64,000 nt of DNA from Escherichia coli (GTDB lineage: Bacteria > Pseudomonadota > Gammaproteobacteria > Enterobacterales > Enterobacteriaceae): assembly GCF_003334305.1 (NCBI RefSeq), contig NZ_QOWS01000025.1. The stretch is one strand, 5' to 3'. The position numbers were made by a program. Below are positions 30,101 through 33,100 of the stretch, piece after piece; positions within the stretch are counted from its first letter, which is position 1, and each line of letters starts with the position of its first letter.

Positions 30101-33100
30101 AATTAAACACGGGGTTAAATTGATCGATGGTTGCTGTCAACTGACTATGGTGTAACGATTCGCGTCGTCCCCACAGCGTCATTGTCAACGACGTACCAAC
30201 TGATCCTGACAAGGTACGAAAAAAATTACTCATACTCGAGGCATTGGCAAATTTATTATCTGGCAAGCCTGAAAACGAAATCGTTGTTAAGGGTAAAAAG
30301 AAACAGGCAACGGCGAATCCCTGGAAAAACTGTGGCAAAATGATGCCTGTAAAATCAATCGTTGGCATAAATGTCACAGAACGCCAGTAATAGCAAACCG
30401 CATACATCAAAAAACTGAATGTCACTAACACCCGCATGTCTATTTTATTGCCATAACGTCCTATCAAAGGTGAAATCAATAGTGGCATGATGCCGATGGG
30501 CGCATAAGCAAGCCCGGCCCATATCGCATTATACCCCATCGTTTCCTGGAGTAACTGCGGCATAAGGACGATCGCTCCAGAGTAAAATAAATACGCGCAG
30601 GTGATACTCACAATACCAATGGTGAAATTACGAGACTTAAACAAACTGAGATCAAGAATCGGATTCTCTGAGGTCGACTCCCAAATGACTAAAGAGATCA
30701 GAGAAATAACTGATACTACTGTTAATATTATTATTGTACTCGAGTTGAACCAATCCAGATCGCGCCCTTTATCAAGCATAATTTGCAAGCCACCAACACC
30801 GAGCACTAACAGGGTCAGTCCTGGTAGATTCATTTTTACCGGTGAAGTTTCAGTTTCTCTTCCTTTAAGTAAGGTTAAGCATAATGTCAGGACGATAATC
30901 CCCATAGGGACATTGATTAAAAATATCCAACCCCAGCTAAAGTTATCGCAAATATAACCGCCCAATATCGGCCCACATATCGGAGCGATAATCACGGTCA
31001 TTGACCATAATGCCAGAGCAAATGTTCTTTTTTCTGGTGGATAATTCCTCAATAATAAACTCTGTGACAGTGGAATTAACGGCCCCGCCATTAATCCCTG
31101 AACGACTCTAAAAAATATCAGCACATCAAGATTGGTCGATAAACTACACATTAAGGAAGACAGCGAAAAAAAAGTGACTGAAAGTAAAAATAACCTTAAT
31201 TCGCCTATTCTTTGTGCCAGCCTGCCGGTAACAGGGATCGCAATGGCATTTGCTACGCCAAACGAGGTGATAACCCAGGTGCCTTCGTCTGTTGATGCTC
31301 CCAGAAAGCCAGATATTGTCGGTATTGCGACGTTAGAAATAGTGGAATCCAACATTTGCATAAATGTCGCTAATGACAATGCAATAGTGACGCACCATAA
31401 CGTCCCACCGGTTAATGGTGCCGGAGTTGATTTAGTGATTGCCATTAAAGTTGTCCATTATGCGAAATAATGTTGCTAATTTCTTTTTCTATCGGACTGG
31501 TATCGATAACTAAAGCCTTACTGGTATAAGCCGGCATGGAGGTCACGGTTGAAGCCAGCTCAGGCATCTCGGCAATGTCTTCGTTCTTCGTATCAATAGT
31601 TGCTGTCATCGATAAACCAATACGCAAGGGATGTTCCATGAGTTCTTTTGGATCAAGAGAAACTTCAACCGGTACACGCTGAACGATTTTGATCCAGTTC
31701 CCTGTCGCATTTTGTGCAGGTAATAAGGAGAACGCATTGCCGGTTCCCATATTGATCCCTGTCACCCGACCATGAAACACAACATTTTCACCATAAAGAT
31801 CGCTGATAATATTGACCGATTGACCAATCCGTACATCCGTAAGTTGTGTTTCTTTAAAGTTGGCATTAACCCACATTTGACGTGCCGGTACGACAGCCAT
31901 TAACGATTGTCCGGGGCTCACTGTTTCGCCGACCTGAACACTTCTCTGGGCAATATAGCCGGTAACCGGACTCTTAATATCCGTACGTTTAAGCGCCAAC
32001 CAGGCTTCTTTAGTTGCATCCGCCGCTTCAACGACTTGTGGCTGACGGTTTAATGGTGTGTTCATTATTAAAGCTTTATTCGCTTTATAAGCCTGGATAG
32101 CGGCATTCAATGCCGCTTTGCTACTTATTAACGTATCTTTGGTATGCTCCAGCGTTTCTTTTGAAATAACCCCCTGCTTCGCTAACGGCACTCGACGGTT
32201 ATAATCTTCTAAAGATTGTTGATACTGAATACGTGCTGAAGCGACTTCGGCACTGTATTGTTTATCCTGTAAGTATAGTTTATTCGTTTGCCGAACAATA
32301 TTTGCCAGATTATTTTTAGCTTTATTGAGTGCGATAGTGGCATCAGTTTTATCCAGTGAAACTAAAATGTCACCTTGTCGAACGTAGTTCGTATCTTTAT
32401 GATTAACGACAGTGACACTACCTGAGACTTGTGCAGAAATTGGATCTGCATTCCCCGTGACATAGGCGTCATCTGTACTAATCATGTCTTCTAATTCCAT
32501 TGACCAATAGGCATAGGCACCTGAAAACGCAATAAATAAAACTACCGCCAATAAAGAAAAGTATTTTCTTCTGTTAGAATGTTTTTTATTTGAATTAATC
32601 TGTTCCACTATTATCTCTCATTTCTCATAGATGAAATTTATGAATTGAATGAAAAGAGCATTCATTCTTCATATCAAACACAGTGCATGTGTTGCACATT
32701 ATCCCAGGAACGTTGGAGGCCTAATTTAAATGAGGTGCAAAAAAAACAACAGAGGACTAAACCGTGGCTTTTGCAATACAATTCTTACGCCTGTAGGATT
32801 AGTAAGAAGACTTATAGTGCCAACTTGAAACTATAAATCATCGGTACAATCCCTGATTTTATTGTTGACATTTCATTTATGCCGACTATTTATATGGTAT
32901 ACTTGTCGAATTATCTTAAAGGAAGCTCAGATTTTCTTATTTTTATTGAGAAAATGAGATGACGCCTTATGTCTGTATTACTACAGGGAGAAGGGAGATG
33001 CTTCATTGCAAAGGGAATAATCTATGAACGCAATAATTATTGATGACCATCCTCTTGCTATCGCAGCAATTCGTAATTTATTGATCAAAAACGATATTGA

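Follow-up and report, generated by a model that had tools for sequence, protein, structure and literature searches.

The locus lies within a window of 64,000 nucleotides of Escherichia coli chromosomal DNA, the whole stretch that was analysed, in which the gene order is dsdXA, emrYK (minus strand), evgAS (plus strand), yfdE-yfdV-oxc-frc (minus strand), yfdX (minus strand), and ypdI. RefSeq annotation of identical DNA places emrY at 29907..31445 and emrK, with which the activated emrKY operon begins, at 31445..32608, both on the minus strand. The EmrK product belongs to the EmrA/EmrK subfamily (487 bits; cut-off 391). Across a spacer of 415 bp, evgA (33024..33638, plus strand) encodes the response regulator that is predicted to bind the element discussed here. 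Its product is identified as EvgA by annotation and by the NCBIfam equivalog model NF007419 (437.9 bits; cut-off 251), and it also matches NarL family models, weakly. The evgS gene follows downstream of evgA at 33643..37236. A mechanical open reading frame of 63 aa (32645..32836, plus strand) covers part of the spacer and spans the box, and we do not consider it to be a gene; it carries no annotation in RefSeq genomes and contains indels of 1 to 2 nt in the two diverged loci described below.

Between emrK and evgA, and thus in the divergent region named in the original prediction, there is an 18-bp imperfect inverted repeat, TTCTTACG-CC-TGTAGGAT, at 32782..32799 (no strand assigned). The emrK start codon is 173 bp away, with the box on its upstream side, and evgA is encoded 225 bp to the right of the box. 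The full string, ttcttacgcctgtaggat / TTCTTACGCCTGTAGGAT, is present exactly as had been quoted and is centred at 32790.5, one base to the left of where the coordinates 32783-32800 had put it. Aligned with the consensus TTCYTACANNTGTARGAA, ttcttacgcctgtaggat shows two mismatches: position 8 is G instead of A, and position 18 is T instead of A. The agreement at 16 of 18 positions claimed for it therefore holds only when the two N positions are counted as matches; among the specified positions of TTCYTACA-N2-TGTARGAA, 14 of 16 are matched. The half-sites are indeed inverted, as described, but the repeat is imperfect, with arms that are self-complementary at 5 of 8 positions, and a repeat search of the window did not include the 18-bp box among the repeats it listed. 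The box is significant because it matches the consensus and not because of its internal symmetry. Its two halves are unequal. The emrK-proximal half-site (32782..32789, minus strand), which reads CGTAAGAA towards emrK, is the better one and contains a perfect GTAAGAA. The distal half-site TGTAGGAT (32792..32799, no strand assigned) consists of an invariant TGTAGG followed by two bases that vary between loci (AT, AA, or CA).

Matches to the consensus are far more frequent in the window than expected. With at most two mismatches allowed, the 64 kb contain three, where 100 dinucleotide-preserving shuffles predict 0.04, and with at most three mismatches there were four against 0.49 expected. All of them sit upstream of EvgA-regulated operons (emrK/evgA, frc, and yfdX). 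The match upstream of frc (yfdW), at 42775-92, has no mismatch, the one upstream of yfdX (43804-21) has one, and a second, weak match upstream of yfdX (43766-83) has three. The frc and yfdX operons have been described as having inverted repeats bound by EvgA (PMC3720670), and an EvgA binding site occurs at every directly regulated gene (PMC4283999). In MG1655, the consensus pattern is found upstream of safA (one mismatch), ydeP (two mismatches), and yegR (one mismatch). Searching full-text literature for the consensus, or for the box sequence itself, gave no relevant match; the sequences upstream of the five other direct targets (frc, yfdX, safA, ydeP, and yegR) do reproduce the consensus. We trained a position weight matrix (PWM) on the sites of these five targets only, leaving out the emrK/evgA site. 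By this matrix, the emrK/evgA box scores 17.98 bits and ranks third in the window after two of the training sites, whereas the best score outside the EvgA-target spacers is 6.75 bits. The second yfdX site reaches 13.2 bits. In leave-one-out scoring the other sites range from 12.3 to 26.4 bits, a range that includes the emrK/evgA box, and in shuffled windows only 0.02 matches per window reach 17.98 bits. The matrix scan, which had been proposed as a check, thus places the box with the other EvgA-target sites, and a chance origin of the consensus match is excluded.

The spacer is 100% identical to that of the K-12 genome, in which the 18-mer occupies NC_000913.3 2483513-2483530. The flanking genes are also the same, so the comparison with K-12, likewise proposed beforehand, shows no sequence difference. 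We take the box to be the EvgA site described for the K-12 emrK-evgA intergenic region (Tanabe 1998; Kato 2000; Masuda & Church 2003). It is already known, an ordinary member of the EvgA-box set and not a new element. Among 5,426 complete E. coli genomes, 5,400 are matched by an 801-bp piece around it, and emrK and evgA are annotated in the matched region. We aligned the spacers of ten loci: that of the window, seven from further E. coli strains picked across the identity range (94.7-98.1%), one from the diverged 'E. coli' SCPM-O-B-8794, and one from a 'Yersinia vastinensis' contig with emrK-evgA. In the last of these, EvgA is 94% identical and the rest of the spacer only about 63%. The TTCTTAC and TGTAGG cores are invariant in all ten loci, and the dinucleotide between the half-sites and the last two bases of the box are variable. 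Position 8 of the box is A in both outgroups, and the box of SCPM-O-B-8794 is perfect at 18 of 18 positions (TTCTTACACCTGTAGGAA). Nowhere in the spacer is there an invariant run longer than AATACAATTCTTAC (32775-32788), and the most conserved 28-column window of the spacer covers 32770-32797, where 25 of 28 columns are invariant compared to 56% overall. Across orthologous emrK-evgA loci, the box is more conserved than expected under neutrality. Among more distant EvgA homologues (66-71% identity, from Hafnia, Klebsiella, Enterobacter, and Buttiauxella), no box was present at three or fewer mismatches in the DNA searched, which for Klebsiella comprised only 381 bp upstream; the Hafnia and Buttiauxella loci are uninformative because they have no divergent open reading frame of the size of emrK. 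The genome scan for EvgA loci returned no other named Escherichia species.

We compared the geometry of the box with that of the other EvgA sites after orienting all of them towards their target genes. The boxes at ydeP, safA-ydeO, yegR, frc (yfdW), and yfdX have the same 18-bp TTCYTACA-N2-TGTARGAA pattern, with the better half-site towards the target gene. What sets the emrK box apart from them is a G at position 8 together with a T at position 18; it alone is located in a divergent spacer together with the regulator's own gene; its score is in the middle of the range (18 against 12-26 bits). The gene-proximal half is GTAAGAA at emrK, safA, ydeP, and frc, and in the distal half the outer two bases are degenerate at emrK, safA, and ydeP (ATCCTACA, TGCCTACA, and AGCCTACA). 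Downstream of the box in the emrK direction there is an AGTCCT element (32753..32758, minus strand), and at emrK, safA, and ydeP alike AGTCYT follows the box at exactly +24..+29. The AGTCCT core is partly kept in both diverged loci; the element could serve as part of a promoter or as a secondary contact. The frc site and the second yfdX site have CTCTCTGATT in common at +23, and at yegR there is a TATAAT at +21, which puts the centre of that box near -41.5. With transcription start sites placed by prediction, orientation and spacing to downstream elements are the same as at the other targets in the emrK direction only.

On the emrK side, a conserved stretch, TTGTATTGCAAA (32770..32781, minus strand), directly abuts the box, and its TTGTATT.CAAA is invariant and contains -35-like hexamers, which makes it a candidate for the -35 region of an EvgA-dependent emrK promoter. 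We infer that the box adjoins the -35 region of a weak, activator-dependent promoter, with a predicted emrK start near 32741-32747 and, consequently, a predicted box centre at roughly -42 to -50. At the predicted distance, only poor -10 candidates are present (TAGTCC or TCTGTT), and a simple promoter scan for the emrK start gave no convincing candidate. A different, constitutive emrK promoter has been predicted by sigma-70 SELEX, TTGATA-17-TTTCAT, for which only the hexamers are given (PMC3946193). It would be located at about 32677-32649, nearer to the gene, and would place the box near -150.

According to the literature, emrKY depends on EvgA directly and strictly (PMC6393483, PMC5706723, PMC8174306), as the original prediction had assumed. 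Both the emrK reporter and emrK mRNA are off in evgA or evgS deletions (PMC6393483), and PemrK-yfp serves as a standard EvgA reporter (PMC5706723). Direct binding of EvgA to the emrKY promoter region is attributed to Kato 2000 in the passages of PMC8174306 and PMC9496106 that cite it. These secondary citations place the binding at the promoter region, and binding to these exact 18 bases is predicted. The non-random consensus match, a PWM score like that of other targets, the identity with K-12, and the conservation all agree with the designation as an EvgA box. The explanation that we favour, and to which we would give a probability of about 0.87, is that phosphorylated EvgA occupies both inverted half-sites as a dimer and switches on the neighbouring emrK promoter in a class-II-like manner, the box playing little or no role at the evgA promoter. 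It is carried by the sequence match observed here, its non-random distribution, its conservation, and its geometry in comparison with other EvgA targets, together with the published binding and EvgA dependence; the contacts between dimer and half-sites, the class-II-like geometry, and the emrK start are predicted. Mild acidity and alkali metals would activate the EvgS kinase, resulting in phosphorylation of EvgA. As a NarL/FixJ-type regulator, EvgA would then bind as a dimer, its C-terminal helix-turn-helix domains contacting TTCTTAC(G) and TGTAGGA(T). The bound dimer would recruit or stabilise RNA polymerase at the otherwise very weak emrK promoter directly to the left of the box, and the emrKY efflux operon would thereby be switched on. 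The contribution of the box to evgAS transcription is probably little or none.

A more specific form of this model can be put forward only tentatively, and we regard it as rather less probable than its negation. In this form, the one-directional, class-II-like emrK site would share a fixed architecture with safA and ydeP, consisting of the degenerate distal half, GTAAGAA, 23 nt, and a functional AGTCYT that acts as an unusual -10-like element or as a secondary EvgA contact. There would be no autoregulation of evgAS via the box, and a third half-site found in the K-12 lineage may alter EvgA occupancy.

Autoregulation of evgAS, with which the original prediction had considered the box consistent, is the main point on which we depart from it. 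The evgA promoter lies at 32865..32900 on the plus strand, with a -35 TTGACA (32865-70), a -10 region TATTTATATG (32887-96), and an annotated start at about 32900; the annotated evgA 5'UTR as used in PMC11052181 begins with TACTTGTCG, which corresponds to position 32900. This agrees with TTGACA-19-TATATG, the evgA promoter predicted in PMC3946193, and TATTTA at 32887-92 is invariant in our alignment. Relative to the annotated start, the box is centred at -109.5, and it is situated 66 bp upstream of TTGACA. This is neither a canonical class I nor a canonical class II position, although distance alone does not exclude an effect. The distance of the box and the near-consensus -35 make the evgA promoter look constitutive. 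That the box is a shared bidirectional operator, serving both activation of emrKY and autoregulation of the divergent evgAS, would fit with the spacer having no second consensus-like box, and also with Tanabe et al. 1998, who, as far as the accounts in PMC5573083 and PMC11210196 go, reported binding of EvgA upstream of evgAS and regulation of the operon by it. Later work argues against it. Strains with constitutive evgS show no up-regulation of the evgAS promoter, which is described as 'known not to be regulated by acid' (PMC4283999). Acid likewise elicits no response from evgA fusions (PMC11210196), and in macrophages evgA mRNA remains flat under conditions where emrK is induced (PMC6393483). 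The later conclusion of the Utsumi/Eguchi group was that evgAS 'is not autoregulated' (PMC8174306). The asymmetry in half-site strength and the downstream spacing also follow emrK and not evgA. Autoregulation of evgAS is thus contested in the literature and not supported here, and we consider a bidirectional operator improbable.

That the site serves emrKY only, as favoured by the geometry, the conservation, and the later expression studies, is the sole refinement that the present analysis brings, and new evidence would therefore be needed before the box is annotated as an autoregulatory element of evgAS. Its value is mainly one of annotation, in that it links the EvgS/EvgA sensor of acid and alkali metals to the EmrKY efflux pump. 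The EvgA-emrKY circuit is used as a standard EvgA reporter and has been implicated in the survival of Shigella in macrophages.

The layout of the box resembles that of sites bound by related response regulators. NarL and NarP recognise '7-2-7' sites, in which inverted heptamers separated by a 2-bp gap are contacted by the GerE/LuxR-type helix-turn-helix domains of a response-regulator dimer. The EvgA box likewise has two inverted half-sites 2 bp apart, but both the regulator and the half-site sequence are different (TACYYMT for NarL compared to TTCYTAC(A) for EvgA). The closest characterised homologue of EvgA is BvgA of Bordetella. At the fha and bvg promoters, BvgA sites consist of inverted heptad-like half-sites that are occupied by a phosphorylated dimer of the FixJ/NarL type upstream of the activated promoter, and the EvgA box can be likened to this arrangement. 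BvgA binds a high-affinity upstream repeat, spreads cooperatively over low-affinity sites, and positively autoregulates bvgAS. In contrast, the EvgA box has no conserved secondary half-site, and evgAS is not autoregulated according to the later work.

By analogy with BvgA, the functional unit could be larger than the 18-mer, with a third half-site and at least two EvgA dimers binding cooperatively. A candidate for such a half-site is AGTAAGAA (32801-32808), which agrees with TGTARGAA at seven of eight positions. Together with the emrK-proximal half it forms a perfect 7-bp inverted repeat, TTCTTAC-N13-GTAAGAA, the arms of which (32782-32788 and 32802-32808) are 100% complementary. The element is present only in K-12-like sequence; the seven other E. 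coli have AGTGAGAA and both diverged loci have AATGAGA(A/T), while the cores of the 18-mer are invariant, and no equivalent third half-site is found at the other EvgA targets. This makes the larger unit very improbable. As a conserved element, the third half-site, or the outer 7-13-7 repeat, was rejected, since it is specific to the K-12 lineage.

Slimmer still are the chances that a further FixJ/NarL-type regulator, for example RcsB, uses or shares the site, alone or as a heterodimer with EvgA. The sequence TAAGAAT, made up of the proximal half and its flank, presumably resembles half of an RcsB-type or RcsAB box, but the resemblance is found in one half only. Acid induction of ydeP and gadE needs RcsB even when EvgS is constitutive (PMC7174508), which would speak for such a role, whereas EcoCyc, according to PMC8174306, gives EvgA as the sole transcription factor common to emrKY and ydeP, and we found no RcsB data for emrK in the literature. 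Finally, although the spacer is AT-rich and listed as H-NS-bound (PMC3946193), and the box has two mismatches and poor self-complementarity, a chance resemblance with no regulatory role is the least probable reading, given the three matches against 0.04 expected per 64 kb, all of them at EvgA targets, the 0.02 PWM matches per shuffle, and the fact that, in the comparison with diverged loci, no block of the spacer is more conserved than the one containing the box.

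Besides the EvgA box in front of emrK (32782-32799), the window contains three further matches to the consensus TTCYTACA-N2-TGTARGAA. The match at 42775-42792 (TTCTTACAACTGTAAGAA), 251 bp upstream of frc/yfdW, is perfect. The other two lie upstream of yfdX, one with a single mismatch (43804-43821, GTCTTACAATTGTAGGAA) and the other with three (43766-43783, ATCTTACAGTTGTAGTTA), and they are arranged in tandem with a start-to-start distance of 38 bp. These matches agree with the inverted repeats reported at yfdX and yfdWUVE (PMC3720670). Two sequences downstream of the boxes also keep a fixed spacing. 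Counted toward the target gene, AGTCYT is found at exactly +24 to +29 in three promoters, those of emrK (32753-32758, minus strand) and of safA and ydeP in MG1655, and the sequence at +23 is CTCTCTGATT for frc and likewise for the second yfdX box. Such fixed distances suggest that these promoters have an architecture in common. The promoters of safA and ydeP may derive from a duplication, in which case they might not be independent examples.

The emrK box is itself part of a larger symmetry, as TTCTTAC-N13-GTAAGAA forms a perfect 7-bp inverted repeat with arms at 32782-32788 and 32802-32808. The outer arm is supplied by a third half-site-like element, AGTAAGAA, which is restricted to the K-12-like allele, with AGTGAGAA being present in other E. 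coli. The stretch that separates the box from the -35 element of evgA contains the invariant block GAAACTATAA (32827-32836), within an imperfect 18-nt palindrome (32806-32823/32825-32842), and another invariant block, CCTTATGTCTGT (32965-32976), is located in the evgA 5' untranslated region. The start of a 9-codon leader open reading frame, ATGCTTCATT, is also invariant. This frame (32998-33027, plus strand) encodes MLHCKGNNL, its stop codon overlaps the evgA ATG, and it is annotated in MG1655 as evgL (b4781), which has been connected with a translational coupling of evgA that CsrA controls (PMC11210196). As genomic SELEX lists the emrK-evgA spacer (32609-33023) as bound by both RpoD holoenzyme and H-NS (PMC3946193), counter-silencing may be an additional mode of EvgA action.

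Among E. coli genomes the spacer has 5,442 matching places, 20 of which are on plasmid-labelled records. No match was found in 27 of the 5,426 genomes, which is consistent with the known deletions of evgAS, for example, in strain 042 (PMC4283999). The genome scan returned no further named Escherichia species. An emrK-evgA locus is present on a 590-kb contig (NZ_CACVAF010000001.1) of a Yersinia-labelled genome, 'Yersinia vastinensis' IP38594; its EvgA is 94% identical to that of the window, its box has one mismatch, and the coding sequence on either side is consistent with emrY and evgS. This could be the result of horizontal transfer or of a mislabelled or contaminated assembly. An EvgA fragment (residues 1 to 114, 100% protein identity) on a 398-bp contig of 'Rhizobium cauense' is probably contamination.
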